Source of the DNA: a virus
Reading direction: 5' to 3' (one strand)
Length of the DNA stretch: 64,000 nucleotides
Virus record (IMG/VR): IMGVR_UViG_3300017684_000001
Span: 1 to 64,000 of that record
Shown here: piece after piece, positions 6,609 to 58,362 of the stretch
Position numbering within the stretch: the first letter of the stretch is position 1
Layout: each line of letters begins with the position of its first letter
Program-made: the position numbers and the translations under genes
The notes under the pieces: generated by a model
The model's database searches: none
Seen by the model: only the letters and a program-made list of their open reading frames with translations
What the model was told of the DNA's origin: nothing

Positions 6609-6627
6609 TGGGTTCTCCTCCTCTGCC

Positions 6628-6781
6628 GAGGTACGGGTTCACTTTTTTGGGTCGAAAGTGGGTACGAGCCGGTTTTATATATATAATATTTCTTCTTCTT
6701 CTAAATTAGAAGTAGAATACAGGAGAGGATATAAAACGGACCCGTACCCACTTTTGACCCAAAAAAGTGAACCCGTACCTC
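6628..6781. repeat. long AT-rich hairpin element, copy A
   Basis: Two ~52 nt arms (GAGGTACGGGTTCACTTTTTTGGGTC...) are reverse complements flanking an AT-rich near-palindromic core. Differs at 2 of 152 positions from the reverse complement of copy C. Confidence 0.9.
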
Positions 6782-6792
6782 CTCCCCTCCTC

Positions 6793-21614: not shown

Positions 21615-21705
21615 CGTGATTGGGAATTAACCTATTGACGGGAGGGCCGTCTAGGGAGTTGTCCGGAGGCCGATTTCTTTCGGATCAAAAAAAACGGCTT
21701 CGTTC

Positions 21706-21771
21706 GAAAAAGAAGCTTTTCTTTTCCGTCGGGATGTGGCTATATCTCTGGGCGGCCGGGAGACCGCACCC
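21706..21771 (+). promoter_or_regulatory. early-type promoter cassette 1
   Basis: GAAAAAGAA A-tract. GCTTTTCTTTT box at 21715-21725. CTATAT at 21740-21745. Hairpin GGGCGG-CCGGGAGA-CCGCaCCC at 21750-21771. Same architecture at four other plus-strand sites. Confidence 0.55.
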
Positions 21772-24589: not shown

Positions 24590-25986
24590 CGGCGGCGAAT
24601 CCCTACCATCCCGCGAGCGGGCTTCTTCGGCGCGAGGCGCTGGATCAGTTCGGGCGTGAACTTGATCTCACGCGGCTGCTCATCGAGCATCAACTCCGTC
24701 AACGCCCAGACGAGCGCATCGACGCGGTTCGGGGATCCCTCGCCCGTGAACCCGTCGCGCGTCATCTGACACATCTCGTCTTCGAGTTCGTCGAACGGCT
24801 GAACGTGGGTGACGCGCCCTTGCTCGTACAAGGCCGAGACCGGCTCCGCACGAACGACCTTACCCCGAGAGGCGTGGACCTCGGAATAGGGAACCTTCGC
24901 GTCAGCGGTCCTGATCGTGCTCTCGACCATCGCCCCGCCGTAGTTCGTCTCGGCGACGATCCGATCGGCCTCGAATGCCCGGTACGCATCGACTGCCCGA
25001 CGCGCCCATCCATTCGGGGAGAGCTTACAGGTCCGGTCCGAGAGCACGTACGCGCGCCCATCGATGCCCTTCCCGGCCACGACGATGCCGATCGCGTCGC
25101 CGTCGTCCTGGTCTTCGCCACGCGTGCCCGAGGGGTCGACCGCGACGACGACCCGCTTCATGTCGGGGATCGTCCGCTTCGCGTTCGCCTTCTCGATCAT
25201 CTCCCGATCCCAGAGCGCACCGGGGGTGTCTTCGAGGACGATCGCGTCGAGTTCCTGTTTGCCGAGCCGGGTCCCGGCGTAGCGCTTCTTCAGCTTGTCG
25301 AGAAATTGCTTCGGGAGGTTGCCGGCGTTGTCGAAGGTCGATCCGCGCGTGACCTCCGTCGTCGGATCCTTGATGATCTCTTTCAGGACCGGGATCGGAC
25401 GCGGCGTCGTGGTCACGAACACGCGAGGATCGGGACCCGAGCGCATGGTGAACATGAGCATGTCCCAAAGCTCACGAGCGTAGCGATACTTCGCCAACTC
25501 ATCGACCCAGGCGGTATCGAACTCGGGTCCGCGAAGCTGATTCGGTTCGGTGCCGTTATAGCCGTACGCGATCGCCCCATTCGGCCACATCAGACGGACC
25601 GGCTTGTACCGAACGGCCGGCGCTTCGTCAGGCGGATAGATCGAGACGAGGCGCTTCACCATCACCTCTTCGAGATCCTTCTGAGTCTCGGCGACGAGCG
25701 CGATCATTCGGGCGCCGTTCTCGACCCGTTGGCGGATCCACTGCGCCCCGGCCTCGGTCTTTCCGAATCCGCGTCCGGCGAGTGCGAGCCATGTCATCCA
25801 GTCGCCGCGCTCGTCGTCCTGATCGCGGACCGGGGCGAGTTGATTCGGGCGAGCCCAGAACTTCCAGTCATGGAGGAGTTCGGCCGCCTGATCCTTCGTC
25901 AGGGATCCGAGGAGTTGCGCTCGATCCTCAGGGGAGAGCGCGGCGACGTTCTGAGCGAGGGATCGATTCGAGATCGGGGCGCCCAT
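24586..25986 (-). CDS. terL: terminase large subunit
   Basis: 466 aa. Walker A-like LAGRGFGKTEAG. Nuclease-half acidic motifs. Position before the portal gene. Confidence 0.9.
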   Translation of the reverse strand: MGAPISNRSLAQNVAALSPEDRAQLLGSLTKDQAAELLHDWKFWARPNQLAPVRDQDDERGDWMTWLALAGRGFGKTEAGAQWIRQRVENGARMIALVAETQKDLEEVMVKRLVSIYPPDEAPAVRYKPVRLMWPNGAIAYGYNGTEPNQLRGPEFDTAWVDELAKYRYARELWDMLMFTMRSGPDPRVFVTTTPRPIPVLKEIIKDPTTEVTRGSTFDNAGNLPKQFLDKLKKRYAGTRLGKQELDAIVLEDTPGALWDREMIEKANAKRTIPDMKRVVVAVDPSGTRGEDQDDGDAIGIVVAGKGIDGRAYVLSDRTCKLSPNGWARRAVDAYRAFEADRIVAETNYGGAMVESTIRTADAKVPYSEVHASRGKVVRAEPVSALYEQGRVTHVQPFDELEDEMCQMTRDGFTGEGSPNRVDALVWALTELMLDEQPREIKFTPELIQRLAPKKPARGMVGIRRR

Positions 25987-29512: not shown

Positions 29513-29718
29513 AGCCCATTCGCCAACTTGCGGACGTCCTCGGGCCGGAAGTCCGGGGGAAGGCCGTTCACGAGATTGCACCGGACCTCGAACGATACCG
29601 TGACCCCATCTGTCGAGATCCGATTGACCTCGCACGAGACCGATTCGTAACCGAACGCCGCCCATCGGCGCTCGATCCGACGGGCGAGCTTCGTCGCCTC
29701 GCGCTCTTCGCCGATCAT
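29509..29718 (-). CDS. hypothetical protein
   Basis: 69 aa ORF. Confidence 0.45.
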   Translation of the reverse strand: MIGEEREATKLARRIERRWAAFGYESVSCEVNRISTDGVTVSFEVRCNLVNGLPPDFRPEDVRKLANGL

Positions 29719-30515
29719 CGCTGGCCTCCGCCCATCGGCAGGTTCGCGAGCTTCCGGAGATCCGGCGCCAGGCCCGGCATCGGGTCGATCCCGAACTTCG
29801 CCGTCAGCGCGTCGATCGAGATGATCTCGGGGGTCGCGTCCTCGGCGTTGTCGACGACATAGGCGCCCGCGAGGGTCGGCGCGTTCGTCGAGGGGTCGCC
29901 GGGGATGTAGACCGCCTTCCAGAGCCGGGCCGGGACCGCGACGCGCCCCTTGAGCTTCGTCGTCAGACCGGAATACGCCGGGCCGGTCACGATCCAGCCC
30001 TCGCCGCCGATCCGCAGGACGACCTCGCGCCGGACCCGCTCCTCGATCCGGGACCAGACGCCCCGGTTATTGTTCGGGATCTGCGGGACCATGTTCGAGA
30101 GCGCGAAACTCTCACGCTGCGCCGAGGCGGTCGGCATGTCGCCGGCCGGGGCCATGTGGCCGCGATCGTATGGGGCGCCCTTGTAATCGTTCATCTCGGC
30201 GCGGAATTCGATCGGCACCTTCGCATCGGCGTGGAAGGCATCGACGCGGTCGAGGTGATTGGCGGCGATCAGGCCGGCGACCGTGAGATGCTCGGCGGCG
30301 TAGGCCGGTCCGTACGACCACGGCGAGACCGCGTTCGCGAATGCCTGGTTGCAGATCTCCAACGAGCCGACGTCCGCGGGCGGGAGATCGGGGGCCTTCC
30401 CGGCGAGGTAGTGCGCGGGACAGGCGGTGTCCGCGGCGTATGCGGGGAGGCGATCGAGGCCGAATAGAGCCGAGGCCGCGAGAATCATGGCTAGGACGGG
30501 CGAGACGGGCTTCAC
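29715..30515 (-). CDS. secreted DNA/RNA non-specific endonuclease (NucA/EndoG beta-beta-alpha-Me family)
   Basis: 266 aa. Sec-type signal MKPVSPVLAMILAASALFGLDRLPAYA. Catalytic-type motif YDRGHMAP ... SNMVPQIPNNNRGVW. Confidence 0.8.
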   Translation of the reverse strand: MKPVSPVLAMILAASALFGLDRLPAYAADTACPAHYLAGKAPDLPPADVGSLEICNQAFANAVSPWSYGPAYAAEHLTVAGLIAANHLDRVDAFHADAKVPIEFRAEMNDYKGAPYDRGHMAPAGDMPTASAQRESFALSNMVPQIPNNNRGVWSRIEERVRREVVLRIGGEGWIVTGPAYSGLTTKLKGRVAVPARLWKAVYIPGDPSTNAPTLAGAYVVDNAEDATPEIISIDALTAKFGIDPMPGLAPDLRKLANLPMGGGQR

Positions 30516-30630
30516 GCGGGGAATCCTCGGGATTGAACGGGTCGGGCTTCTGCGGGGCGTTTCTGACGATTTCGGTTTTAACGGCTGATTGCGGGCTGTG
30601 GGAAGGGGTCGGAGGGAAGAAATCTGAGTA

Positions 30631-30803
30631 GGGGAGGGGGAGGTACGGGTTCACTTTTTTAGGTCAATTCTGGGTACCGCCCCGTTTTAAGTATATATAT
30701 ATTCTTCTTCTTCTTAAATTAGAAGTAGAATACGTAGGAGAAGAAAAAACGGACCGGTACCCAGAATTGACCTAAAAAAGTGCACCCGTACCTCCCCCTC
30801 CCC
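30631..30803. repeat. long AT-rich hairpin element, copy B (divergent, G/C-extended stem)
   Basis: Same architecture and plus-strand orientation as copy A. The stem is extended by GGGGAGGGGGAGG / CCTCCCCCTCCCC. Four arm substitutions relative to A/C are each compensated in the other arm. Confidence 0.9.
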
Positions 30804-30827
30804 CTCCCCCTTTGTCGTGTATTTTTC

Positions 30828-31247: not shown

Positions 31248-31489
31248 TCCAATTCTCCGTTCTCAAACGACGCGTTCAGTCGGCTCGTCGCGACGAACGC
31301 GAGACAGACTCCACTGACCGCGAATCCACCGACGTCAGTCAGAGCCGTTAAGATCCCTTCGATCAGGGCGATCGCGTAGAGCAGGACCGCCCATCGCAGA
31401 TCGAGCCGTCGCTCACGGCGGAAGGCCCGACGCTGATCGTCGATGCGCCTCTTCCAGCCGGCGTCGTCCCAACGATCCGTATTTTCCAT
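31244..31489 (-). CDS. small membrane protein
   Basis: ORF track 31244..31519. ATG 31489 (MENTDRWDD) forms an ATGA overlap with the primase-helicase stop. Two hydrophobic segments. Confidence 0.4.
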   Translation of the reverse strand: MENTDRWDDAGWKRRIDDQRRAFRRERRLDLRWAVLLYAIALIEGILTALTDVGGFAVSGVCLAFVATSRLNASFENGELE

Positions 31490-33741
31490 CACATCTCTCC
31501 GTCGATGATCTCGCCGCACTTCGTCATCCGGTCCCGGATCAGGGAGTTTTGTCCGACCTCCTTCAGCCGATCCCGTTCCTTCTTCTCCATCTCCGGAAAC
31601 TCACGGTCCTTCGCATCGCCTAAGGCCCGAAGCTCCTCGACCAACTCGGCGTTGACGATCACGTACTGCAACCGCCCGTTGACCTTGATCCGTCCGCCCC
31701 AGGCGAAGACCCCGCAATCGACCATCGCCTTCCGGATCTCGTAGTCCGAATCGAACACGCGCCCCTGCGCATGAGCCCTGACGAAACCGACCACGTCCTT
31801 CAGCGCCACGGCCGCCGGCCGCTTCAAATCCCGCAACGCCTCGGCGACCGCGGCAGCCTCCGATTGGCCCTCGGACCGCGAGCCCTCGATCATCTCCTTC
31901 TTCCGCTCGGTCATCGGCGCTTGTTCGGCCGGCTCAACGTAATCCCCAAACTCATGGGCCCACCGTTTAACTATAGAAAGCCCTCCGGCCTCGATCCATT
32001 CGCGAAAATAATTGAACTGCTTTTTCGTCCAAGGTATTTCCGTGACTTCTGGATAGAACCATCTCCGGTCGTCATTTTCCATTTTCAGGGCGCGCATGGA
32101 GTTACTACACGCCAAAACGTGGCACCAATTATCAATAACGTATTGCCGTGTATATTTTTGATTTACCATCACCTCTTTATCTGTGATGACAGACTTAAGC
32201 GCGTTGTAAGCTTTCCAACTTGAACCGGAATATATTTCGTTAACGACGGCAAGACGTTTATGAGCGACCCATTCATTGAACGTCGCCGTCACATCGTTCT
32301 CGCCCGGATATCCGACGTTCGAGACCCCGACCAAGGGAGCCAGGATCCCGGCCCCGAGCGTCGTCTTTCCGACGCCCTGCTTCTCCGAGATCAGCAAGAG
32401 TCCGTAGCTCATCCGGATATCTGGCCGCGCGATCAGCGTGGCGCACCACCGCTCGACCTCGCGCCGCTCGCCTGCGTTCGGAAACAGGTACGCGAGGAAT
32501 TCGAGGAACGGCTCGACGTTTCCCGGGGCGGGCTTGATCGGTCCCGGGACGTGGAGGTTGATCGCCGAAGAGCCCCGGAACGTGACCGACAGCCCCTCGT
32601 GATCCGGCCGGTAGCACAGCCGGGTCGCGCGCCCCTGATACGCCTTGACGATCAGCCGCGAGGTCTCGTTCACATGCGAGAACGGCGCGAGCATCTTGTT
32701 CAGGATCGCTTCTGCACGGAGGATCTCCGGCATCTCGCGACAGACGAACAGATCGGCCTCCTCGACGTAGGCCCACATGTTCCGGAAGCTCTCGCGCAGG
32801 ACCGTGACCGGTCGCCCCTTGCCGTCGGCCGGCGGGATCTGATCCGTCGCCCAGGTCGCGGGATGCTGGCATTCCCGGAACGCCGGCCCGGTATAGTACG
32901 CCCCGCCGAACATCTTCTCCGGGAACCGGTCGGCGAGATCGAAGCTCGACGGGAACTCGTCGGTAAACTGGATCGTGAACGTCGCGCAGCGCAGCGCCTG
33001 GGCGATTTTCGGGACCGCCGAGCGACCGGCTTCGTCGTTGTCCGCAACGATGAACGCCCGCGTCACCCCGGCCCGCTTCAGCGCGCCCCAGTCCGTCCGC
33101 GCCGGGCTCATCGCCCCGCCGATCCAGCCGAGGTGGACCGCCCCGCTCAATTCCGCGCCCCACGGGTGGGCCTTCAGCGCGTCCCGGTCCTCGCGCGTCT
33201 TCCCGTCGACGAGGCGCTGAATGTAACGGGCCGCCTTCGCACCCTCGTGGATGAACACCGTCGATGATCCCTTCAGCAGATGGGCGTTGTAGATCGGCAA
33301 CGGCCCGTCGGGCTCGGCGCAGCGCCACTGGTCGTCGTCCCAGTACGTCCACGGGACGTAGGCCCGCTCGCCGTCGCGCTCGATCCGAACCTGGACCATG
33401 ACGACGTCGTTCGCCTCGTCGCGAAACTCGTAGACGTCTTTCGGGTCGGCCTCGCGGATCATAGGCGGCGGATCGGCGACGACGCTGAGTTTCTTGATCT
33501 GCGGCCACGTGTACCCGGCGCAGTCCTCGACGATCGCGGCGAGTTCCTTCTCGGTCGGCGCGTACTCGGTCGGCGCGTCGATCGCCCCGTTCGGCGCGAC
33601 CCGGATCACGGCGAGGTCACGCCAGTACTTCCCCGAGACCTCCTTGACGACCGCGGTGCGGAGCGACCGCGGTTCGGCGCCGATCCGGGAGAAGTAATCC
33701 CGCAGCGCCGGGACGTCGGTCAGGATCTTAAGTCGGTTCAT
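31489..33741 (-). CDS. DNA primase/helicase (Toprim-like N-half, D5/P4-type SF3 NTPase C-half)
   Basis: 750 aa. FIHEGAKAARY...FIVADNDEAGR is Toprim-like. Walker A is LLISEKQGVGKTTLG. Walker B-like motif is LAVVNEI. Confidence 0.75.
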   Translation of the reverse strand: MNRLKILTDVPALRDYFSRIGAEPRSLRTAVVKEVSGKYWRDLAVIRVAPNGAIDAPTEYAPTEKELAAIVEDCAGYTWPQIKKLSVVADPPPMIREADPKDVYEFRDEANDVVMVQVRIERDGERAYVPWTYWDDDQWRCAEPDGPLPIYNAHLLKGSSTVFIHEGAKAARYIQRLVDGKTREDRDALKAHPWGAELSGAVHLGWIGGAMSPARTDWGALKRAGVTRAFIVADNDEAGRSAVPKIAQALRCATFTIQFTDEFPSSFDLADRFPEKMFGGAYYTGPAFRECQHPATWATDQIPPADGKGRPVTVLRESFRNMWAYVEEADLFVCREMPEILRAEAILNKMLAPFSHVNETSRLIVKAYQGRATRLCYRPDHEGLSVTFRGSSAINLHVPGPIKPAPGNVEPFLEFLAYLFPNAGERREVERWCATLIARPDIRMSYGLLLISEKQGVGKTTLGAGILAPLVGVSNVGYPGENDVTATFNEWVAHKRLAVVNEIYSGSSWKAYNALKSVITDKEVMVNQKYTRQYVIDNWCHVLACSNSMRALKMENDDRRWFYPEVTEIPWTKKQFNYFREWIEAGGLSIVKRWAHEFGDYVEPAEQAPMTERKKEMIEGSRSEGQSEAAAVAEALRDLKRPAAVALKDVVGFVRAHAQGRVFDSDYEIRKAMVDCGVFAWGGRIKVNGRLQYVIVNAELVEELRALGDAKDREFPEMEKKERDRLKEVGQNSLIRDRMTKCGEIIDGEM

Positions 33742-34983: not shown

Positions 34984-37869
34984 TTAAACGGCATTCGTCG
35001 GCGCCAGCGTCACGTCCTCACCGACGTCGCCGATGTAGCGGATCGCCTTGACGTTGATCATCCGGAAATCGTCCGATCCCCAGACGGTCCCTTTCACGGC
35101 GTAGAGCGAGCGCAGCCCTTTGCCGCGCTCGATCACGGGCTTTCCCATCGTCTCGAAATCGTAGCGGCCGATCTTCGCAAAGATCGTGTCCGTGTCGTCC
35201 TGGAGGAACAGCCCCAGGCTTGTGGTCGGCCCCTCGAACACCCGGCCGCCGCGGCGATCGACTTTCGCCGGGTCGTTCTCGTCGCCGGGATTGATCTTCG
35301 CGAGGACGCAGAAGACCATGACCTGAGCATCCGATCCGTCGGACTGGATGGTGACGATCGGGACCGGCTCCGTGCGGATGTTCCGCTCCCGCGGATCCGG
35401 CATCACCCGTGCGAACGCATCCCGGATCGGCCACAGCGAATCGATCGCGGTCTTGGGTTCGGTCAGGAGCTTGCGCGCCCGGTCCGTGAGCCGCTCGCCG
35501 CGGGCGCGGGCGCCGATGATCGTCGAGATCATCTTCGGGCCGATGCCCTTCACGACCGAGAGCGGACCGACGAGGACGCGCTTCCCGTCCTTGGCGCCGA
35601 CGGTCCATTTCTCGCCCGACAACTCGGGATCGATCGGGACGTAATCGTACCCTTCGGTCGACATCTCGCGCAGGATCTTGATCTGCTTGTCCGGATCCGG
35701 CTCGTGCGAGAGCGTCGCCGCGGCGAACTCGAACGGGTGGTAAGCCTTCAGCCACAAGCACCAGTACGAGACGATCCCGTACGCGACGGAATGGGCGAGA
35801 TTGAAGCCGTATTGCCCGAACGCGACGAGATCGTTCCAGACCTTGTCCGCCGTCTCCTGATCGAGACCCCGCTCCAGGGCGCCGGCCTTCCACGGGATCT
35901 CGAACCGGCTCAACGCCTCACGGCCCATGGTCTTCGACATCATCTTTCGGAGCGCGGTGACATCCTCCCACGACATGCCGCCGATCTCGCGACCGATCGT
36001 CATGATCTGCTCTTGGAACACGAGAATCCCCAGGGTGTCCTTCAGGAGCCCTTCGAGGAGCGGGTGCGGGTAAGTGACCGCCTTCGCGCCCGTGCGCCTG
36101 TAGACCCATTCCTGCGCGCCGCCAGACTGCATCGGGCCGGGGCGGGCGAGTGCCGTCACCGTGACGATGTCGTTGAAGCACGTCGCGGTAAATTGCTTCG
36201 TGATCCCCTGGAGGGCGCCTCCGTTGAACTGGAAGATCCCAGACCACCGACGCGCGTTAAGGATCTCGAACGCCGCCGGGTCGTCGAGCGGGAGCTTCTC
36301 CAGCGTGTCACGGGGCAGGCCTGCGAGTTCGAGCGCGTCCTCGAACACGGACAACTGGGTCAGCCCGAGCGCATCGATCTTCAGGAGCCCGTAGCCGTCC
36401 TCGGCATCCTTCTTGTCGCACATCGTCGCCCCGGTTCGGCGGTCGATCGCGACGGTCTCGATGATCGGCCGCTCGGAGATGACGACGCCGGCCGCGTGGA
36501 TGCCAGCGTGCCGCGGGTGCCCCTCGAACCGTGTCGCGATCCGCATCTCCGGATTCGTGCGCATCAGGTCCCGGCCGACGGACGTCGTATCGAGGGTGTC
36601 GGCCAGGGTGTCGAGGGCGCGGGCGTCACCGGCCGGCCGGACGATGAGCGAATCGGCGACCGGTTCGGTCTTGTAGCGCCCCACCCGGAGCGCGGCCCCG
36701 CATTCCTGAAGCGCCGAGCGCGGCTTGAACATCGCGACCGTCCCGAGCCGGGCGACGCGCTCCGGGCCGTAGGTGTTGCGCAGGTATTCAAAGACGAGGT
36801 CTCGTTGCTGATCGCTGAAGTCGATGTCGACGTCCGGCATGTCGAATCGGTTGACGTCGATGAACCGCTCGAAGATCAGACCGTACGGGATCGGATCGAC
36901 GGTCGTGATCTTCAGGAGGTAGCAGACGAGCGAACCGCACGACGACCCGCGCGCCGGCCCGACGATCATCCGGGCGCGCGCCCACTGGCAGAGGTCCGCG
37001 ACCAGATAGAAGTAATCCTCGAACGCCTTGTCGGCGATCAGGGCGAGTTCCCGATCGAGCCGGGCGGCGTAGTCCGGCCGGGTAAGGTCGCACCCGAGAT
37101 CGGCGGCGCCCCGGACGCACATCTCCCGCAACGTAGCCGGCCGCGGAGGCGCGACGAGAACAGCACGGGTGAGATCGGCCGTCGAACCGCGGCGCACGGC
37201 GTCAGCGGCCCCAATCGCGTCGTACGTCACCGAAACCGGCAGATTGAGTCGCACTATCGATCGCTCCCACTCGTCGAATGAGAGAATGTGCTGCGGGTAG
37301 GTCTGCGTCTCGGCGTTCCGGCCGGTCAGGACCTCGTAGAAACCGCGGTCGGATTCGCGCGGGTAGCGATTGTCCGACGAGGCGATAAACGGGATCCCGC
37401 GCGCGATCGCGAGCCTGGCGAGCCCGAGCGGCGTCGACGGCCCGAGGGCGAGGAATGTGTCCGGCGGCGGCTCTAGGTCGGCGATCTGGGCGCGGTGGCC
37501 CAGGATCCGATAGACCCCCTCGGCCGCGTACGCCTGGACGTCCGTGAGCAACGGGCGATACCGGAACTGCGAGGTCGCGAGTTCGACGAGGCGGTTGATC
37601 GGCGCGAGGCTGTCTTTCGCGACGAACGTGACGTGATCGAAAGTCGGCTTCTTCTCGTTGAGCGACCGCGTCACCGCGAGTTCGACGCCGAAGATCGGCC
37701 GGAGCCCGGCTTTCTTCGCCGCCTTGCTCCACCGGTAGAACCCGAATGTGCTTGCGCGGTCGGTGAGCGGCGCCTCGGTCATCCCGATCTCGACGAGGCG
37801 CGAGAGGACGTCGTCGATTGAACCGGCGGCTTCCCGGAAAGAGTAGCCCGAGCGGCAACGAACGGTCAT
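34984..37869 (-). CDS. dnaE: DNA polymerase III alpha subunit-like replicative polymerase
   Basis: 961 aa. N-terminal PHP-type region. LLKIDALGLTQLSVFEDALE and the following palm/fingers-like blocks are typical of DnaE. Confidence 0.85.
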   Translation of the reverse strand: MTVRCRSGYSFREAAGSIDDVLSRLVEIGMTEAPLTDRASTFGFYRWSKAAKKAGLRPIFGVELAVTRSLNEKKPTFDHVTFVAKDSLAPINRLVELATSQFRYRPLLTDVQAYAAEGVYRILGHRAQIADLEPPPDTFLALGPSTPLGLARLAIARGIPFIASSDNRYPRESDRGFYEVLTGRNAETQTYPQHILSFDEWERSIVRLNLPVSVTYDAIGAADAVRRGSTADLTRAVLVAPPRPATLREMCVRGAADLGCDLTRPDYAARLDRELALIADKAFEDYFYLVADLCQWARARMIVGPARGSSCGSLVCYLLKITTVDPIPYGLIFERFIDVNRFDMPDVDIDFSDQQRDLVFEYLRNTYGPERVARLGTVAMFKPRSALQECGAALRVGRYKTEPVADSLIVRPAGDARALDTLADTLDTTSVGRDLMRTNPEMRIATRFEGHPRHAGIHAAGVVISERPIIETVAIDRRTGATMCDKKDAEDGYGLLKIDALGLTQLSVFEDALELAGLPRDTLEKLPLDDPAAFEILNARRWSGIFQFNGGALQGITKQFTATCFNDIVTVTALARPGPMQSGGAQEWVYRRTGAKAVTYPHPLLEGLLKDTLGILVFQEQIMTIGREIGGMSWEDVTALRKMMSKTMGREALSRFEIPWKAGALERGLDQETADKVWNDLVAFGQYGFNLAHSVAYGIVSYWCLWLKAYHPFEFAAATLSHEPDPDKQIKILREMSTEGYDYVPIDPELSGEKWTVGAKDGKRVLVGPLSVVKGIGPKMISTIIGARARGERLTDRARKLLTEPKTAIDSLWPIRDAFARVMPDPRERNIRTEPVPIVTIQSDGSDAQVMVFCVLAKINPGDENDPAKVDRRGGRVFEGPTTSLGLFLQDDTDTIFAKIGRYDFETMGKPVIERGKGLRSLYAVKGTVWGSDDFRMINVKAIRYIGDVGEDVTLAPTNAV

Positions 37870-38406
37870 CTACACGTACCCCAATCGCCGAAGTTCGAGG
37901 AAGCAGCGGGTCAGCGCCTCGACGTCGACCCGTGCGCGGTGGGCTCCGGCGAACTTCTCGCCGAAGAGGTGTTCGTGCAGCGCGCCGAGCGAGAGCCGGT
38001 AGCCTTTGATCCACTCGGTCGCCTCGACCGTGCAGATCCGGCCGGCGGGCCATGGCACGACGAGGCCGCATCGTTCGAACTCGACGTCGATCATGGCGAC
38101 GTCAAAGCTCAGGTTATGGGCGACGACCTCGTCGGCGCGCTGCACGATCCTCGATAAATCGGGCGCATGAGCCGAGAACGGCTTCGCGCCCTTCAACATC
38201 TCGTCTGTGATACCAGTTATAGACGAGATCTTAGGCGAGAGCTTCTCGCCGGGGTTGGCAAAGAATTCTATCTCGTCGACCTTCCGGCCGTCTTCAAGAA
38301 GACAGCCATATAATTCTGTGACTTTAGGTTGGTGTTTTAGTGGAAGAAGACTTGCGCCAACGAGATCTGTGGTTTCCGTATCCGCGATAAATGAATAGAT
38401 ACTCAT
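37870..38406 (-). CDS. DnaQ-like 3'-5' exonuclease (DEDDh)
   Basis: ORF track 37870..38526. ATG 38406 (MSIYSFIADTETTDL = ExoI). AHNLSFDVAM = ExoII. HRARVDVEAL = ExoIII. Abuts the dnaE start. Confidence 0.8.
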   Translation of the reverse strand: MSIYSFIADTETTDLVGASLLPLKHQPKVTELYGCLLEDGRKVDEIEFFANPGEKLSPKISSITGITDEMLKGAKPFSAHAPDLSRIVQRADEVVAHNLSFDVAMIDVEFERCGLVVPWPAGRICTVEATEWIKGYRLSLGALHEHLFGEKFAGAHRARVDVEALTRCFLELRRLGYV

Positions 38407-38413
38407 TTTCGGA

Positions 38414-38863
38414 TCACCTAACCGGGAAATCATACGTCGGTTCACGCCGCGGCACGACCGGCTCGATCTCGACTTCCGGCTTCCAAGGCGGGGCCGTTTT
38501 GGGACTCTGAGCGAGCGGTCCGCCATCTTTGAAAGCCCAATCGATCGGATCTAACTTGTCGATTTTGTCTTGAGATTCCGCATCGAGTTCCCGCAGCATC
38601 GCCGCGTAGGTCGAAAGGTCGAGAAGCGAATCGTCGTGGCCGCCTGCCTCGAACTGGTTGGCGTACCGAACGATCTTCATGACGATCTGTGTGAGGACGC
38701 CGAGGCGGTTCGCGTCCTCGATGTTCCGGATCGCGAAGCCATTCGGCCGAAGCGCCATGAGCACATGGCCGAAGTTCTTATACGCGTCGCCGTAGACCTT
38801 TCCGCGCTCCTCGAAAACGTCGGCGCTCTCGCGTAGGGAATCTTGGGGTTTCATTTTCACCAT
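38414..38863 (-). CDS. all-alpha NTP pyrophosphohydrolase-like protein (uncertain)
   Basis: ORF track 38414..38908. Starts possible at 38863 or 38854. ERGKVYGDAYKNFG...KIVRYANQFEAGGHDDSLLDLSTYAAM recalls MazG-like phage proteins. Confidence 0.4.
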   Translation of the reverse strand: MVKMKPQDSLRESADVFEERGKVYGDAYKNFGHVLMALRPNGFAIRNIEDANRLGVLTQIVMKIVRYANQFEAGGHDDSLLDLSTYAAMLRELDAESQDKIDKLDPIDWAFKDGGPLAQSPKTAPPWKPEVEIEPVVPRREPTYDFPVR

Positions 38864-39333
38864 CCTGTCGCTTGAACCTGCCAACAGCAGTATCCGAGAT
38901 TGCGCCACGCCTCGACGACCTTGTCTCGGTCTTCGAGGATGAAGGCGACGTCTGGCCTTCCATCGTAAAAAAGTGATTTATCTTCTAGAAACTTATCCAG
39001 CATCGCCGGCTTAACCTCGACGTCCGGCCTCCAGTCGCCGTCCGACCGCATCAGGATCGTGTCGAAGACCGCTAGATCATGCTTGATCAGCCATTCAAGC
39101 GTCGTTTGGCGGTATCGCTCGTTCCGGCCGGTACAGGCGACGAGGAGGATCTTGTCGAGGACCGACCACCAGCAGAGGACGGAGAGAAAGAACGCCACAT
39201 CCGACCGAGGCCGATCGTCCTTGGCCGCTTGATGAAATTGATCCCATTCTTTAGCTTGTGCGAAATGATCTCTATGCGAAGAATCACAAAGAGTTCCGTC
39301 TAAATCGACCACTATGACTTTCACGAGGTACAT
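38857..39333 (-). CDS. HAD-superfamily phosphatase (nucleotidase/polynucleotide phosphatase-like)
   Basis: 158 aa. Motif I VVDLDGTLCD. Motif II-like LLVACTGR. C-terminal acidic motif ILEDRDKV. Confidence 0.6.
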   Translation of the reverse strand: MYLVKVIVVDLDGTLCDSSHRDHFAQAKEWDQFHQAAKDDRPRSDVAFFLSVLCWWSVLDKILLVACTGRNERYRQTTLEWLIKHDLAVFDTILMRSDGDWRPDVEVKPAMLDKFLEDKSLFYDGRPDVAFILEDRDKVVEAWRNLGYCCWQVQATGW

Positions 39334-39727
39334 CCTTCTGAGTTCTAGTTAAGCCTCTTAATTTATGATCTTTTTCTTCTTTTGTCATTTTATCCCAACT
39401 TAATTTTATTCCCTTAGATACGTTTAATCTCCAATTATGATTTCTTAAAACTCTTTCAATCGTATTTCTTTTCGAAGACCCAATGGAGAGATGATCTGGG
39501 TTTATGCACCATCCATTATCACAACTATGCAGGACCAATCCCTCTTTCAGATTAGGAGGACGACAAGGAATGTCTTCGCAATTAAGCCTATAGCTAAGAC
39601 GATGAGCAAACCAATTTTCTCCTCTCCACCTAAGTTTCTTTCGATTAGTAAGACGAGGAGCATCTACTTCGATGCAATCACCAACTTGTTTAAGAGGAAG
39701 AGGGAAAATAACGTTCTTAATATCCAT
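39284..39727 (-). CDS. HNH homing endonuclease
   Basis: 147 aa. AHRLSYRL...VLHSCDNGWCINPDHLSIGSSKRN is HNH_3-like. Strongly AT-rich island 39335-39760. The 3' end overlaps the HAD gene by 50 nt. Confidence 0.75.
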   Translation of the reverse strand: MDIKNVIFPLPLKQVGDCIEVDAPRLTNRKKLRWRGENWFAHRLSYRLNCEDIPCRPPNLKEGLVLHSCDNGWCINPDHLSIGSSKRNTIERVLRNHNWRLNVSKGIKLSWDKMTKEEKDHKLRGLTRTQKDVPRESHSGRFRRNSL

Positions 39728-39765
39728 TTGAACGGTCTTTCATCTCTCCACCCACAACCCGAGAG

Positions 39766-39785
39766 CCCCGGCGCGTGCGCCGGGG
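39766..39785 (-). other. GC hairpin at the upstream border of the HNH island
   Basis: CCCCGGCG-CGTG-CGCCGGGG, 8 bp stem, no U-run. Confidence 0.4.
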
Positions 39786-39803
39786 TCCGTCATCGGTTCG
39801 AAC

Positions 39804-40361
39804 TTACTTCTTGATCTTGGCGACGCGGCCGGTGAAAAGCCCGAGAACCTCGGGATCGATCGGGTCGCCGTTCCGGATCCGCTCGCGGGCGAACGCGCAC
39901 AGCGTTTGCGAGTGGACCGATTCGGCGACCTTCGGAGACAACCCGGCCTCCCGCAGCGTCGCCGCCGTCGAGAGCGCCTCGTTGTGCTCCGAACGGCCGA
40001 ACTCGACCTCGACCGCGGTCTTGATCAGGTCCGAGCCGCCGTTCTCGACGAGCCAGGACACCGCCGCGGCCCGCCGGACCGGATCGCTTGGGATCGATCC
40101 CGAGACGAACGGCTCGATCGAGATCATCCGCCCTTTGAACTTGAGCGCGTCGACGCCGAGTTCGGCCATCTTGTCGGGGACGGTCGCGGTCTTGAGCCGC
40201 TGTAGGAGGTTCTTCGCCGCCTTCAGGTCGGCGTCGAGATTGGCCACGATCTCTTCTTGCCGAAGCATCTGGTCGAGGAGACCGTTAAGCTCGGAGAGAT
40301 CGGAGGCCGGCGCCGCTGCGGCGCCGACATCGAAGTCGGAAGCGTTCGCAGTGCCGGCCAT
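39804..40361 (-). CDS. coiled-coil protein in recombination-module position
   Basis: ORF track 39804..40550. ATG 40361 (MAGTANASDF) lies 2 nt after the upstream stop. The upstream extension is Arg/Gly-rich noise. Confidence 0.5.
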   Translation of the reverse strand: MAGTANASDFDVGAAAAPASDLSELNGLLDQMLRQEEIVANLDADLKAAKNLLQRLKTATVPDKMAELGVDALKFKGRMISIEPFVSGSIPSDPVRRAAAVSWLVENGGSDLIKTAVEVEFGRSEHNEALSTAATLREAGLSPKVAESVHSQTLCAFARERIRNGDPIDPEVLGLFTGRVAKIKK

Positions 40362-41261: not shown

Positions 41262-41294
41262 GTGCGTTTCGGCAGAAAAAATGTACCTCGATTT

Positions 41295-41358
41295 GAAAAG
41301 GGCGCTTTTCTTTTAGGCCAGAATGCTATCTAAAGGTGTGGGGCCGGAGACGAGGCCC
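41295..41358 (+). promoter_or_regulatory. early-type promoter cassette 2 (rightward)
   Basis: GAAAAG. Box at 41304-41314. TATCTA/TCTAAA at 41327-41334. Hairpin GGGGCC-GGAGACGA-GGCCC at 41340-41357. ATG of the XRE gene at 41376. Confidence 0.55.
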
Positions 41359-43851: not shown

Positions 43852-43916
43852 ATAAAACGCTTTTCTTTTACGAGAAAATGGCGCATACCTCCGTCGGGGC
43901 CGGAAACGAGAGCCCC
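43852..43916 (+). promoter_or_regulatory. early-type promoter cassette 3
   Basis: ATAAAAC. Box at 43859-43869. CATACC at 43884-43889. Hairpin GGGGC-CGGAAACGAGA-GCCCC at 43896-43916. GGAG RBS and ATG at 43932. Confidence 0.55.
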
Positions 43917-50011: not shown

Positions 50012-50078
50012 TTTAAAAACGCTTTTCTTTTTAATCAATCTGGCGTCTTATGGCGGCGGGGCCGGAGACGATCGCCCC
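50012..50078 (+). promoter_or_regulatory. early-type promoter cassette 4
   Basis: TTTAAAAAC. Box at 50021-50031. TCTTAT at 50046-50051. Hairpin GGGGC-CGGAGACGATC-GCCCC at 50058-50078. ATG at 50104. Confidence 0.55.
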
Positions 50079-50103
50079 ATGCTTAAACCGAGGAACGAAA
50101 GCC

Positions 50104-50910
50104 ATGTCAAAAACCGGAATTCAAGGGATCTCAACCGGGCGATCGGACACGTTCCGGATCAGCCTTGACGATCTCTATGTTCGAGAAGGATGGAACGCGC
50201 GCGACGTCGACTTCAACCCGAATGATGAAGACGATCTGGCTCTCGCTCAGTCGATCGCTGAAGTCGGCGTCAAGGAGACGATGACGGCGATCTGGGAGGA
50301 CGGGCGGGCCTACATCACGAACGGACATCGTCGCCGGGCCGCCGCTCTCTACGCCCGCGACGTCCTAAAAGCCGAGATCAAGTCCGTCCCGGTTCAGACC
50401 GAGCCGCGGTATTCGAGTGAGGCCGAACACGTCCTCTCTCAGATCGTCCGGAACGCCGGCAAACCGCTTACCCCATTCGAGAAGGGCAAGGTGTTCAAGA
50501 AACTTCTCGACCTCGGCTGGAGCGAGACGGAAATCGGTCAGAAGACCGGGATCACCCGTACGCGCGTCGTGCAACTTCTCGAAGTCCAATCGGCCCCGGA
50601 GCCCGTCAAGGCGATGGTTCGATCGGGTGAGGTCTCAGCCGATCTTGCCATGAAGACGATCCGAGCAGCCGACGGCGACACCGGAAAGGCCGTCGCCGAT
50701 CTCGCAGGCGCGATCGGCACGGCGAAGAAGGCCGGGAAGACCCGAGCCACGGCCAAGCACGTCGAGGGCGGCGAGCCTCGATCATCTCTCAAGAAGACCG
50801 CCGGGGAATTGCTCCGCGTTTCCGAGGTTGAGATCTCAGGCGACGACGTGGTCACGCTGACCATGCCGAAAAGCTACTTCGAGCAATTCAAGAAGGCCGC
50901 TGGGTACTGA
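50104..50910 (+). CDS. ParB/Srx-fold N-terminal domain protein with HTH
   Basis: ORF track 50050..50910. ATG 50104 (MSKTGIQG). ITNGHRRRAAAL is a ParB GxxRxxA-type box. GWSETEIGQKTGITRTRVVQLLEV is an HTH. Confidence 0.75.
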   Translation: MSKTGIQGISTGRSDTFRISLDDLYVREGWNARDVDFNPNDEDDLALAQSIAEVGVKETMTAIWEDGRAYITNGHRRRAAALYARDVLKAEIKSVPVQTEPRYSSEAEHVLSQIVRNAGKPLTPFEKGKVFKKLLDLGWSETEIGQKTGITRTRVVQLLEVQSAPEPVKAMVRSGEVSADLAMKTIRAADGDTGKAVADLAGAIGTAKKAGKTRATAKHVEGGEPRSSLKKTAGELLRVSEVEISGDDVVTLTMPKSYFEQFKKAAGY

Positions 50911-51754: not shown

Positions 51755-52276
51755 ATGAAGACGCATATCGAACTCGGAATCTCGAAAAGTGAATATGACG
51801 CCCTGATCGCGACGGCGGCGTATCTCCGCGCGGATGAGGATTTATGGATCGACGAAATGGAAGTCGACGATGGAATCGAAGAAGAACGAGAGAGACCGTT
51901 TTTTAATATGCTCCACACTTGCGAAGGCTATGCTTGTGGAACCGTAGCTTGCATCGGCGGACACGTTTCGATCTTCCAAGAACTAGGTCGAATTCCGGAA
52001 TACGTCGAAGCGGACGTCCGCGATCGCGCCGACAAATACGTCTCAAAGAAGAACTTCCAGGACTATATGGACTCGGGAGAGGTCGCGCGGGAGAGGTACG
52101 AAGCAGCCTCCGGTCTCGCTAAGCTCTTCTACCCAGCCCCAATCTCGAATTGGAATGGCTTAACCCCGGTCGTCGCGGCCGACGCGATCGACCGATTTCT
52201 CGCGACCGGCGATCCGGGTTGGGTCGAGATCGCGAAAGAAAAAGGGTTTGTCCTCGCACCAGGGTGGAATCGATGA
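51755..52276 (+). CDS. hypothetical protein, Cys-motif paralogue 2
   Basis: 173 aa. FFNMLHTCEGYACGTVACIGGH ... AIDRFLATGD. Confidence 0.5.
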   Translation: MKTHIELGISKSEYDALIATAAYLRADEDLWIDEMEVDDGIEEERERPFFNMLHTCEGYACGTVACIGGHVSIFQELGRIPEYVEADVRDRADKYVSKKNFQDYMDSGEVARERYEAASGLAKLFYPAPISNWNGLTPVVAADAIDRFLATGDPGWVEIAKEKGFVLAPGWNR

Positions 52277-52554
52277 GCGCCAACGACGGCGGCCCGACAA
52301 TCCGAGTCTCGCGCGCGCCGGTCGATCGGCCGCGGATCCCGCGCGGAATCGTATCGGTCCCGGTGTGCCCCTCGGAGTGCGAGAATAGCCCTGTAGCTGG
52401 CGAGCGCGCCGATTTCAGCCTCCGGGTCATCGACGACGCCGGACGGGTCTACGAGGCCCACTATCACGGCGCGCGGGCCGTATCCATCGAGGATGGGGAT
52501 CGCGCGCTCTTCGAAGTCGGCCCGGAGGTCGTCGTGACCTGGGATCCGGCATAG
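52273..52554 (+). CDS. hypothetical protein
   Basis: Part of ORF 52150..52554. ATG 52273 forms an ATGA overlap. Confidence 0.45.
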   Translation: MSANDGGPTIRVSRAPVDRPRIPRGIVSVPVCPSECENSPVAGERADFSLRVIDDAGRVYEAHYHGARAVSIEDGDRALFEVGPEVVVTWDPA

Positions 52555-52566
52555 GGGGGAGTGGAG

Positions 52567-52720
52567 GAGGTACGGGTTCACTTTTTTGGGTCAAAAGTGG
52601 GTACGGGTCCGTTTTATATCCTCTCCTGTATTCTACTTCTAATTTAGAAGAAGAAGAAATATTACATATATAAAACCGGCTCGTACCCACTTTTGACCCA
52701 AAAAAGTGAACCCGTACCTC
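52567..52720. repeat. long AT-rich hairpin element, copy C
   Basis: Reverse complement of copy A with 2 substitutions in 152 nt. About 53 bp outer stem (1 mismatch, 2 G-T pairs) plus an inner TTCTACTTCTAA/TTAGAAGAAGAA stem. Confidence 0.9.
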
Positions 52721-52741
52721 GCCAGAGAAGGAGAAGCAGTG

Positions 52742-53341
52742 ATGGAATGGGACGCATACCTCTACGGATTCGCGGAACACGCCGCTAAGAAATCGAAGGA
52801 CTCGACCCAGGTCGGCGCCGTCCTCGTCGCCCCGAACGGCCGCAGCGTCCTGCTGACGGCGTTCAATGGCCCGCCGCCCGGCGTCCTCGATCTCCCGGAA
52901 CGTCGGGAGCGGCCGGAGAAGTACCGCTACGTCTGCCACGCCGAGCGCAACTTGATCGCGACAGCGGCCCGCCACGGGATCCGCACGGATGGGACGACGG
53001 TCTACTGTACCCACCGATGTTGCTCGCCGTGTGCCGCGGAGATGATCGCCGCTGGCGTCCGGACCTTCGCCTACGGCCCCGGCCGATTCGTCGGCGACGG
53101 TGAGCAGTGGGAGGCTTCGGCGACGATGTTCGCAGAAGCTGGCGTCAAGACTAAAGAAATTATCGCGAGGGCGCCCGCGGATCCTGATCGCGATTGGTGC
53201 GAAAGAGCGTTCGCTCTTTTCCGGTCTCTGGCGCCTCACCGTCCTCTCACGCCGACCGACGATGCCGAGCTTCTCGTTGGGCTCGAACTGAAAGAAGAGC
53301 CATCAAAGACCGTTCTCCGCATTCTTAAGGTCCGTCCATGA
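52742..53341 (+). CDS. dCMP (deoxycytidylate) deaminase
   Basis: ORF track 52706..53341. ATG 52742 after AAGGAG. Zinc motifs CHAERNLI and CSPCAAEM. Confidence 0.8.
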   Translation: MEWDAYLYGFAEHAAKKSKDSTQVGAVLVAPNGRSVLLTAFNGPPPGVLDLPERRERPEKYRYVCHAERNLIATAARHGIRTDGTTVYCTHRCCSPCAAEMIAAGVRTFAYGPGRFVGDGEQWEASATMFAEAGVKTKEIIARAPADPDRDWCERAFALFRSLAPHRPLTPTDDAELLVGLELKEEPSKTVLRILKVRP

Positions 53342-54975: not shown

Positions 54976-55211
54976 AGCTGACCAAGTCTGAGGAGAAGAT
55001 CCGGGAGGCGCTCGAAGCCGGCCCCCTCGACGCCGAGGGGATCGCGGCGATCCTGTACGTCGACCGCCCCCGGCCGGCGTTCTGGCGCTCGTCGGTCTCG
55101 GCGATCATGCGCTACCTCCGGGTGAAGACCATGAACGATTCAAAGCCGGTCGTTCGATCCTCCGCGCTCGGGCGCGGGCGGAAGGCCGAGTACGCACTGG
55201 GGGAGCGATAA
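54972..55211 (+). CDS. small wHTH-like protein
   Basis: 79 aa. GTG start overlapping the SNF2 stop. Confidence 0.45.
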   Translation: MKLTKSEEKIREALEAGPLDAEGIAAILYVDRPRPAFWRSSVSAIMRYLRVKTMNDSKPVVRSSALGRGRKAEYALGER

Positions 55212-55226
55212 AATCGCTCTCTGATC

Positions 55227-55266
55227 GAAAAAGACGCTTTTCTTTTCGGTCGGAATAGGGTCTACT
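55227..55266 (+). promoter_or_regulatory. early-type promoter cassette 5 (no +1 hairpin)
   Basis: GAAAAAGAC. Box at 55236-55246. TCTACT at 55261-55266. AGGAG at 55284 and GTG at 55296. Confidence 0.5.
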
Positions 55267-57357: not shown

Positions 57358-58362
57358 CTAGTTGCACCACGCCTCGATGAAAACGGTCGGTGTCCCGGTC
57401 GTCGCGAGATTGAGCGACAGGACGCCGAGAAGCGAGACCGTCGCCGCCTGCGAGACGTTCCCCGATACCGTCGTCGTCGTCACAGTCGAGACGTTTCCCA
57501 TCCGGACGCCAGCCGCGGTCGCGTCGACGCCCTGGGCCTGAACCTGGACGTTGTACGGCGCGGCGGTACACCCTGCCGAGGCGATCGATACGGACCAGAG
57601 CCCGTTCGTCGCGACCGTTGATCCGACCCAGACCTTTGCCCCGGTGCGCGCGCCGGACGGCCCGTAGACCGGAATGGATCCTGCGGGTCCGATTGCGCCA
57701 GTTAGTCCCGTCGGCCCCGTTGGGCCGGCTGGCCCTGTCGCTCCAGTCGCACCTGCGGAGCCCGTGGCCCCCGCATCACCCTTCGTCCCGGTCGCGCCTT
57801 GCTGACCCGTCGCTCCAGCAGGACCAGTTGCTCCAGCAGATCCCGTGTCTCCCTTCGCGCCCTGAATACCCTGAGGCCCTTGGGCACCTGTTGAGCCCGC
57901 ATTTCCCGTCGCCCCCGTTAAGCCTTGAGGCCCGCTCGGACCCGTCGCTCCCACCGGACCAGGATTACCCTGCACCCCTTGAGCGCCAGCCGGTCCAGTA
58001 GGCCCGGCGACCCCTGTCGCTCCAGTCGGGCCAGGCTGGCCCTGTAATCCTCGATCGCCCTGAGCGCCCTGCGGCCCCGTAGCTCCCGTTGCTCCGGTGT
58101 CCCCCTTCGGCCCAGCATTGCCCGTCGCTCCCTGGATTCCCTGCGGGCCTGTGGCCCCGGCCGCGCCCGCATCCCCCTTCGGCCCCTGAACGCCCTGGCT
58201 TCCCGCCGGCCCCGGGGCTCCGTCTGCGCCGGGGTTGCCTGGCGGCCCAACACCATTCTGCCGGATGTAGGCGAGCGCCGGCCCCGTTCCGAAGTCGGGG
58301 ATCGCTTCGAGACTGAGAAGCCCGAGCGCGAGCGAGAATGCGATCCTACTGACCGAAGCCAT
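57358..58362 (-). CDS. collagen-like (G-X-Y repeat) protein with N-terminal hydrophobic leader and globular C-domain
   Basis: 334 aa. About 60 uninterrupted GXY triplets ([19 protein letters not shown]...). N-terminus [18 protein letters not shown]. Confidence 0.85.

Follow-up and report, generated by a model that had tools for sequence, protein, structure and literature searches.

The RNase III sites of phages T7 and T3 (R0.3, R1.1, and others) and the three near-identical early-mRNA sites of Bacillus phage SP82 are hairpins between the cistrons of polycistronic mRNAs, where they punctuate operons and leave the Shine-Dalgarno sequence (SD) of the next cistron free. Here we describe a palindromic, noncoding, intergenic cassette of ~155–185 nt that occurs three times (copies A, B, and C) in a 64,000-nt stretch of viral DNA (positions 1 to 64,000 of IMG/VR record IMGVR_UViG_3300017684_000001, hereafter the window) and that we tentatively read as a punctuation hairpin of this type. 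Like the T7, T3, and SP82 sites, the copies are paralogous within one genome, co-oriented with transcription, and intercistronic. However, the hairpins of those phages are ~50–60 nt with specific internal loops, whereas the cassette, known here as a predicted hairpin, has a 55–70-bp stem, a conserved AT-rich center, and arms that turn over, and the two share no sequence similarity.

Several other repeats resemble the cassette in form. The ERIC/IRU and YPAL elements of enterobacteria are imperfect palindromes of ~127–170 nt that are transcribed in operons and have an orientation-dependent effect on the stability of flanking mRNA; ERIC elements occur in both orientations in bacterial chromosomes, whereas the cassette is uniformly oriented and found in phages. 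Mycobacteriophages carry short repeated intergenic motifs in one orientation, upstream of starts or in operons (SAS/ESAS in Cluster K, stoperators in Cluster A), but these are 13–17-bp motifs (short inverted pairs in ESAS) rather than a 155–185-nt hairpin. For the Correia element of Neisseria (CREE/NEMIS), one account describes, among other properties, an inverted repeat around a conserved core that is cut by or protected from RNase III, binds IHF, and can create promoters (PMC2649163). CREE are intergenic and ~100–155 nt, like the cassette, and are co-transcribed, but they exist in hundreds of copies at variable bacterial chromosome sites with a TA duplication and 26-bp repeats, whereas the cassette has three fixed phage junctions, 53–58-nt arms, no duplication, and no sequence similarity to them. 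Neither CREE nor ERIC similarity was found: plasmids, phages, and species genomes yielded no match at the nucleotide level, and a TA duplication is lacking. Finally, MITEs (miniature inverted-repeat transposable elements) have been reported in 0.01% of viral sequences (vMITEs; Nadal-Molero et al. 2024, PMC11602168). These are likewise small and noncoding, have terminal inverted repeats, and sometimes occur in several copies per phage, but they are defined by target-site duplications (TSDs) and links to host MITEs, whereas the cassette has conserved orthologous junctions, no duplication, and no host counterpart that we could find.

The cassette is thus a new family of a known kind of element, the palindromic intergenic repeats and phage intercistronic hairpins. 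It is closest in function to the T7/T3 and SP82 RNase III sites and closest in form to the Correia element, and by our comparisons it is unrelated in sequence to any known family. Its unusual features are the three fixed junctions, the organization as an SD-carrying stop-to-start cassette, the turnover of arms between conserved termini and center, copying between sites, and the swapping of types between phages.

A Palindromic Cassette Occupies Three Gene Junctions

Copies A and C form an inverted pair of 181 nt that is 97% complementary in a repeat search (6613–6793 and 52555–52735). A preliminary description of this DNA held that C is the reverse complement of A with two differences. Pairwise alignment bears this out, with 152/154 core bases identical, and the substitutions are exactly the two that it named (ATATTAyATAT and CACTTTyGAC). 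Copy B is more divergent, its core matching that of A at 129/156 positions (83%). In each copy two inverted arms, 92–95% complementary in the repeat search, enclose an asymmetric AT-rich center of ~48 nt (Table 1); the arms measure 58 nt in B, where they are lengthened by GGGGAGGGGGAG/CTCCCCCTCCCC, and 53 nt in the other two copies. No open reading frame (ORF) or protein-family match lies inside the element. Copies A and C span from the preceding stop codon to the SD of the next gene.

Predicted RNA folds of the copies are single long hairpins, with −102.5 kcal/mol for C (z −12 vs. shuffles) and −126.1 kcal/mol for B (z −15), and folds of −85 to −127 kcal/mol (z −12 to −15) were obtained. A covariance model built from seven copies gave three matches only within the window (E-values 1e-26 to 1e-28), and these values together with the fold energies indicate that the elements do not arise by chance. 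Copies are present in independent assemblies (ENA, JGI/IMG, and Logan), so the element is not an artifact. The 120-nt stretches of lowest GC in the genome include all three copies. Rfam gave no match at the gathering threshold in the window, and its sole match in related loci was a chance miRNA-precursor hit (E = 0.7).

The window makes up the greater part of a metagenomic contig of 65,697 nt (ENA ERZ27250440 k141_369820) and represents a contractile-tailed phage genome of ~62% GC overall. Family scans of its proteins recognized structural and packaging genes (sheath, tape measure, baseplate hub and wedge, major head protein, portal, and terminase) and replication genes (DNA polymerase, D5/P4-type primase at 31489–33741, two helicases, and a ParB-like protein), and found no RNA polymerase gene. 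According to GC3-based gene calls, genes lie on the minus strand over ~1–41 kb and on the plus strand over ~41–56 kb. By the calls and scans, the arrays around A and B are on the minus strand and the array around C is on the plus strand, as first described, so that all three present the same strand to the mRNA. The downstream genes of A and C had likewise been correctly named as encoding a baseplate wedge protein and dCMP deaminase, with the correct strands, and each is closely preceded by a GGAG-type SD and a start codon (ATG at 6608, minus strand, and at 52742).

The proposal that orientation follows transcription holds for 3/3 window copies and for every copy in ~380 kb of window plus related phage DNA, in which a check for oppositely oriented copies found none. 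The covariance model scores the sense strand above the antisense by 20–80 bits in nearly all copies; the exception is a primase-side (B-site) copy, L048, where the two are essentially tied. Every copy belongs to one of three orthologous junction classes, so that independent orientation events number only ~3, and uniform orientation has a chance probability of ~0.25 and small statistical weight. Element centers had also been described as 22–24 kb apart. Two gaps of the 65,697-nt contig agree with this (~24.0 and 21.9 kb), but the third is 19.7 kb, and a 68-kb relative has gaps of ~18.8, 23.1, and 26 kb, so that the spacing reflects conserved gene order rather than a ruler.

The Same Junctions Carry the Cassette in Related Phages

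Relatives were recovered by exact-pattern scans, protein-anchored locus retrieval, and contig look-ups, and all are from metagenomes (labels such as L009 and P0009 denote the phages and loci compared). The key relative, IMGVR_UViG_3300034069_000634 (68,037 nt), has the element at the same three junctions, next to the gp25-like, dCMP deaminase, and primase/secreted nuclease genes, although its gp25, dCMP deaminase, and endonuclease are only 80%, 69%, and 63% identical to those of the window. The gp25 site is filled in at least six further phages (gp25 67–92% identical), and L043/L044 (deaminase 83% identical) and L045 carry the element at the dCMP junction. In a clade of uncultivated myoviruses of ~66–68 kb, the cassette is a conserved part of the genome.

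Empty sites, which the preliminary description had proposed to seek among relatives, do exist. More distant phages (gp25 ≤53% identical) have a tight or overlapping stop/start at the gp25 junction and no element. In P0009/L030 (gp25 69% identical) the gp25 junction also lacks the element, and a 67-aa Cys-rich ORF stands there instead (CSYCRFWKK..., L030 9798–10001), fitted to its neighbors by tight TAGATG and GTGATG overlaps. In this same phage type the primase/endonuclease junction nevertheless carries a strong element (L048, −108 kcal/mol). Because the primase-side site is filled in a phage without a gp25-site copy, it is probably the oldest, with the gp25 and dCMP copies probably added later in a sub-clade. 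Weaker look-alikes with arms of 19–30 nt and the same pyrimidine-tract-then-purine-tract center lie downstream of primase in three phages whose primases are 59–63% identical (L037, L039, and L040), and in L039 the look-alike directly precedes a signal-peptide gene, as for B.

Beyond this clade, collection scans used exact patterns. An exact 20-base arm pattern, which sets the sensitivity of the species-genome search, turned up no copy among the genomes of 185,579 bacterial and archaeal species; the single match, inside an ABC-F ATPase gene, was rejected as chance. Plasmids and cultured phages gave no related nucleotide match, and the best gp25 match among cultured phages is <50% identical. A first pattern scan of metagenomes returned nothing. 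We also rejected five viral-contig matches of a central-region pattern (L002–L006), which are chance hits in AT-rich coding sequence, and three metagenome matches of a paired-termini pattern, which are GC-rich, lack arms or an AT-rich center, and are about as many as expected.

Short-read assemblies provide a further view of copy number. Logan contigs repeatedly end inside the element (Table 1), and one 19.6-kb contig extends exactly from copy A to copy C. Such breaks are expected for a dispersed repeat and so independently confirm multiple copies; the cassette explains them, and breaks of this kind can serve as an indirect detector of further copies.

Table 1. Coordinates of the cassette copies, adjoining features, and related loci
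Feature	Position	Strand	Remarks
TAG stop of upstream 93-aa gene (gene 52273–52554)	52552–52554	+	Directly before cassette C
Copy C cassette (core 52567–52720)	52555–52735	+	
5′ purine tract GGGGGAGTGGAG	52555–52566	+	Part of copied variant-1 cassette; matches A-site flank, not relatives' native C-site flank
Left inverted arm, copy C	52567–52619	+	Starts with family-wide conserved terminus GAGGTACGGGTTC
AT-rich asymmetric center, copy C	52620–52667	+	CCTCTCCT (52620–52627), pyrimidine-tract/purine-tract mini-hairpin TTCTACTTCTAA/TTAGAAGAAGAA, then ATATTACATATATAAAAC
Right inverted arm, copy C	52668–52720	+	Ends in conserved terminus GAACCCGTACCTC
3′ tail GCCAGAGAAGGAGAA with SD AAGGAG (52728–52733)	52721–52735	+	Identical in A-site copy of L001
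dCMP deaminase gene, cistron 3′ of C	52742–53341	+	ATG at 52742
Copy A cassette (core 6628–6781)	6613–6793	−	288-aa tail gene (stop 6793–6795) on one side, gp25-like gene on the other
gp25-like baseplate-wedge/"sheath initiator" gene, 3′ of A	6213–6608	−	ATG at 6608
Copy B (core 30640–30794)	30627–30807	−	In 312-nt noncoding gap; no SD directly after
Secreted nonspecific endonuclease gene (Endonuclease_NS), 3′ of B	29715–30515	−	Other neighbor of the gap is a 139-aa gene downstream of primase
gp25-site element of IMGVR_UViG_3300034069_000634	L009 2819–2986		
dCMP-site element of IMGVR_UViG_3300034069_000634	L018 2808–2973		
Primase/endonuclease-site element of IMGVR_UViG_3300034069_000634	L047 9727–9894		
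gp25 junction filled	L001		gp25 92% identical
gp25 junction filled	L028		gp25 82%; right arm only, contig end
gp25 junction filled	L033		gp25 76%
gp25 junction filled	L032		gp25 75%
gp25 junction filled	L029		gp25 71%
Logan contigs breaking in element	SRR6988717_1314 (L025/L027), SRR10605995_494 and _3428 (L028, L046), SRR30758787_57455 (L029), SRR29668712_222046 (L033), SRR32938296_402412 (L045)		

Arm Sequences Turn Over While Predicted Pairing Is Preserved

Comparison of variants distinguishes constant from replaceable parts. The termini are conserved as GAGGTAC(G/C)(G/A)GTTC...GAAC..GTACCTC and the center retains the design (C)CTCC..TATATTCTTaTCTT..AGAAGAAGAATATATA..TAAAAC; the arms (45–58 nt) are wholly replaced between variants (e.g., CACTTTTTTGGGTCAAAAGTGGGTAC, CAATTTACGCCAGGGATCCTGAAACTC, and GTAATCGCCCCCAGGATCCTGGGAGTT). 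In an alignment of seven sequences, 92.8% of cells are paired and 21/38 pairs have changed on both sides, i.e., in a compensatory manner, whereas none of 500 shuffles reaches any observed pairing value and the paired fraction of cells in slid controls does not exceed 51%. As judged from this alignment, pairing is preserved through the turnover of arm sequence.

The left terminus GGTACGGGTTC (window 52569–52579) resembles the start of gp25, GATGCGGGTTC (L012 2995–3015, M-R-V-R). This likeness could hint at an inverted duplication of the gene start or could be chance, and it is too short to distinguish the two.

Cassettes are also more similar between phages than the genes around them. The element is 98.7% identical between the window and L001, where flanking genes are 90% identical (76% at third codon positions), and ~98% identical between L009 and L033, where gp25 is 74% identical. 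Variant type is incongruent with the gp25 tree, as L009 and L033 both carry variant 2 at 76% gp25 identity, and L032 and P0004, which are closer to L009 (gp25 82–83%), have a different variant.

The flanks suggest how the copies came to be alike. Native C-site copies in L043 and the 68-kb relative have a common 5′ flank, ..AACCCGACC(CC), each with its own SD region, whereas the flanks of C in the window are of the A-site type (5′ flank TAG-GGGGGAGTGGAG, 3′ flank GCCAGAGAAGGAGA). The 3′ tail is identical to that of the A-site copy of L001 and so travels with the cassette. These A-site-type flanks imply that the whole ~185-nt stop-to-start cassette was copied as a unit, from the A site to the C site. 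The purine tract that the preliminary description placed before each copy is present in the window as reported but is not a family feature; L043 and the dCMP-site copy of the 68-kb relative have CCCGACC(CC) instead. At A- and C-type junctions in relatives an SD lies 2–25 nt past the right terminus, conserved in kind.

Much of this would also be expected from a selfish MITE-like palindromic repeat without phage function that spreads among intergenic junctions and co-infecting phages, a possibility that we consider doubtful, if well worth weighing. Such a repeat would survive where, and in the orientation in which, it is harmless, because the hairpin loops out of the mRNA and the 3′ tail supplies the SD of the next gene. 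The element is small, noncoding, and AT-rich in a 62% GC genome and has long terminal inverted repeats. Its discrete variants are ~98% identical where flanking genes are 74–90% alike and disagree with the gp25 tree, the boundary of high identity coincides with the cassette ends, nonorthologous copies have a common 15-nt SD tail, and tight junctions are empty in distant relatives, as is the gp25 site in L030. MITEs, moreover, do occur in viral genomes, if rarely (0.01%; PMC11602168).

The cassette does have the terminal inverted repeats on a short noncoding element that mark MITEs. Nonetheless, no TSD (TA, GTAC, or other) abuts the termini in A, B, C, L001, L009, L018, L032, or L043, contrary to the earlier suggestion of a TA or GTAC duplication at the element ends, and no transposase was found among the window proteins scanned. 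An 8-mer, AGGAGGAG, does lie on both sides of A, but it is offset by 5 nt and is inexact in C and L001. A selfish repeat is also at odds with the lack of any real match among species genomes (exact arm pattern), plasmids, or cultured phages, with the restriction to three sites, which two complete genomes have in common at 63–80% flanking-protein identity, and with a copied unit that reaches beyond the inverted repeats, unlike a cut at transposon ends. The window encodes a His-Me-finger homing-endonuclease-like ORF (39284–39727), which nothing ties to the element.

RNA- and DNA-Level Signals

Predicted stems are 55–70 bp long and co-oriented with the gene array, which agrees with T7-type RNase III hairpins in being intercistronic and in offering at least ~20 bp of double-stranded RNA (dsRNA). 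Sense RNA is more stable than antisense in 8/12 distinct variants, most strongly in L039 (−48 vs. −35 kcal/mol) and L047-B (−61 vs. −46), but the energy difference is not significant (P = 0.08, Wilcoxon test), nor is the excess of G-U pairs in sense folds (48 vs. 32 in antisense across the 12 variants, P = 0.09). We regard this predicted asymmetry as a weak, nonsignificant lean toward the sense strand and not as a result.

An alternative is that the cassette acts in DNA, either as a portable promoter/operator, with the center as promoter and the arms as binding sites, or as a cruciform or protein-binding site for, e.g., the ParB-like protein or primase-helicase, serving as an origin or in recombination. 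We find this unlikely. Orientation would track transcription in this case as well, since genes and replication forks are co-oriented, and complementarity is strictly Watson-Crick with few G-U pairs. The center is conserved in sequence (TATA[T/A]AA in 7/12 variants), the copies are among the lowest-GC 120-nt stretches, arms of variants 2, 3, and 5 contain local palindromes centered on GGATCC, such as dimeric DNA-binding proteins prefer, and the probably ancestral copy sits in a 300–430-nt noncoding gap by primase, at the boundary of the replication and packaging modules. A ParB-like gene is present at 50050–50910.

Of the three window copies, however, one gave a promoter-like match. A sigma-70-like match (TTAAGA-16-TATACT) lies inside B and points at the downstream gene, whereas A and C have none (−35/−10 hexamers with 16–18-nt spacing, a consensus that may not be the host's), and C has TATTAC where A has TATTAT. 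An origin at the elements was rejected from skew, as the extremes of cumulative GC/AT skew are at ~21.7 and 41–42 kb, away from all copies, and the adjacency of A and C to the SD of the next gene would be an odd place for one. Arms that are wholly different between close relatives would furthermore need a co-varying protein. An intrinsic terminator was also considered and rejected, there being no terminator-like site at A, B, or C, where the 3′ flank reads GCCAGAG....

The preliminary description proposed instead that an internal loop, CCUCUCCU, is complementary to the SD-like tracts and might act as a translational gate for the downstream gene, which we now judge very improbable. CUCCU/CCUCC does occur on the 5′ side of the center in 7/12 variants, and the downstream SD offers AGGAGA for six contiguous pairs. 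However, that SD is unpaired in every minimum-energy fold, and so is CCTCTCCT in the fold of copy C. The SD starts 8 nt from the base of a −100 kcal/mol stem and the loop lies ~50 bp (~13 nm) up it, so by A-form geometry the two should not meet without melting of the hairpin. The CUCC motif is missing from the other five variants (r2, L047-B, L048-B, L039, and L040, two primase-side copies among them), native C-site flanks lack the purine tract, and B is not directly followed by an SD or start codon.

A Candidate Punctuation Hairpin in Polycistronic mRNA

The cassette fills the same three junctions at 63–80% flanking-protein identity, is retained across many lineages, is uniformly oriented, keeps its hairpin through arm turnover, and is positioned from stop to SD, all of which argues that it is kept for a cis-acting role rather than as a passenger. 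Our leading interpretation, held tentatively and at somewhat less than even confidence, is an intercistronic "punctuation" hairpin of the RNase III processing or mRNA stability type that is homogenized by copy-paste. Each step of this mechanism is inferred. The cassette would be transcribed inside long polycistronic mRNAs and fold into a ~55–70-bp hairpin, looping the insert out of the mRNA. At its 5′ base the hairpin would mask the SD-like GGAGG, while the real SD of the next cistron stays single-stranded just past its 3′ base. Host RNase III cuts substrates of the kind that such a long, perfect dsRNA stem represents, and the hairpin would then separate, or differentially stabilize, upstream and downstream mRNA segments, like the RNase III sites of phage T7. 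Nonreciprocal copying between sites would keep the three copies alike.

Several observations weigh against punctuation of mRNA. The center and termini are conserved in sequence and not in structure alone, which a plain dsRNA substrate does not explain. Pair changes are almost all from one Watson-Crick pair to another, G-U intermediates are few, and the two strands fold to nearly the same degree, a pattern that an inverted repeat at the DNA level would also produce. One variant is near-identical in phages whose gp25 is only 74% alike, off the gp25 tree, which fits a mobile element as well. Finally, arms are partly decayed in the C-site copy of L043 (−70 kcal/mol) and the B-site copy of L047 (−66 kcal/mol), so a long perfect stem is not indispensable.

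More speculative, and improbable in our estimation, are two further readings. The cassette might be a portable, transcription-oriented, self-copying "intercistronic module" (stop, hairpin, and SD), or else a transcription-coupled DNA site next to primase, in which an AT-rich unwinding center, preceded by a G-rich RNA tract, would serve as an R-loop-type origin or recombination hotspot, three per genome. If true, either would represent a previously undescribed class of phage cis-element, and lineage-specific arm "types" would be swapped between phages independently of flanking genes.

Whatever its role, the cassette exhibits concerted evolution and type-swapping of a noncoding element within virus genomes. 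Long single-strand gene arrays under host RNA polymerase need internal signals to set the ratios of replication, head, tail, and baseplate proteins, and to our knowledge such signals are mostly unknown outside T7-like phages. The cassette is sequence-defined, recurs at the same three junctions across an uncultivated clade, and can be searched for with a covariance model, which makes it a testable question whether these hairpins are RNA processing sites, promoters, or passengers.

Other Features of the Genomes

A second repeated motif, GAAAA(A/G)GnnGCTTTTCTTTT, has five copies (21686–21735, 41275–41324, 43854–43916, 50016–50078, and 55207–55256), two of which are followed by a shared GC-rich hairpin, GGGGCCGGAnACGAnnGCCCC. 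Its copies lie where gene arrays meet or end, among other places in the divergent region near 41 kb and at the maximum of GC skew near 21.7 kb, positions from which they may be promoters, operators, or terminators.

A low-GC island at 38300–40300 (down to 25% GC in 120 nt) holds two minus-strand ORFs, 38857–39333 and 39284–39727, with a PNKP-type phosphatase domain and the His-Me-finger homing-endonuclease-like domain (PF05551, E = 7e-7), respectively. The 68-kb relative has a 214-aa ORF with the same domain beside its DNA polymerase gene (L047 1388–2032). The precomputed annotation of the relatives assigns the phage polymerase (window 34984–37869, minus strand; L047 2029–4923; L048 2861–5779) to the bacterial Pol III alpha type (PHP, DNA_pol3_alpha, and finger domains).

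The large terminase is 727 aa with Hint/intein-splicing matches in IMGVR_UViG_3300034069_000634 (L047 14997–17180), compared with 466 aa in the window (24586–25986), which suggests an intein in the relative's terminase; HNH ORFs flank the packaging genes there (L047 14662–15027 and 20273–20767). Among structural genes of the window, the tape-measure protein (10455–12887, minus strand) contains endolysin/lysozyme-like segments, with PHROG matches over residues ~440–750. A collagen-like Gly-X-Y repeat at 57716–58248 (9-nt periodic, family D1, 14 copies) lies in a 334-aa ORF (57358–58362, minus strand), which probably encodes a fiber or decoration protein.

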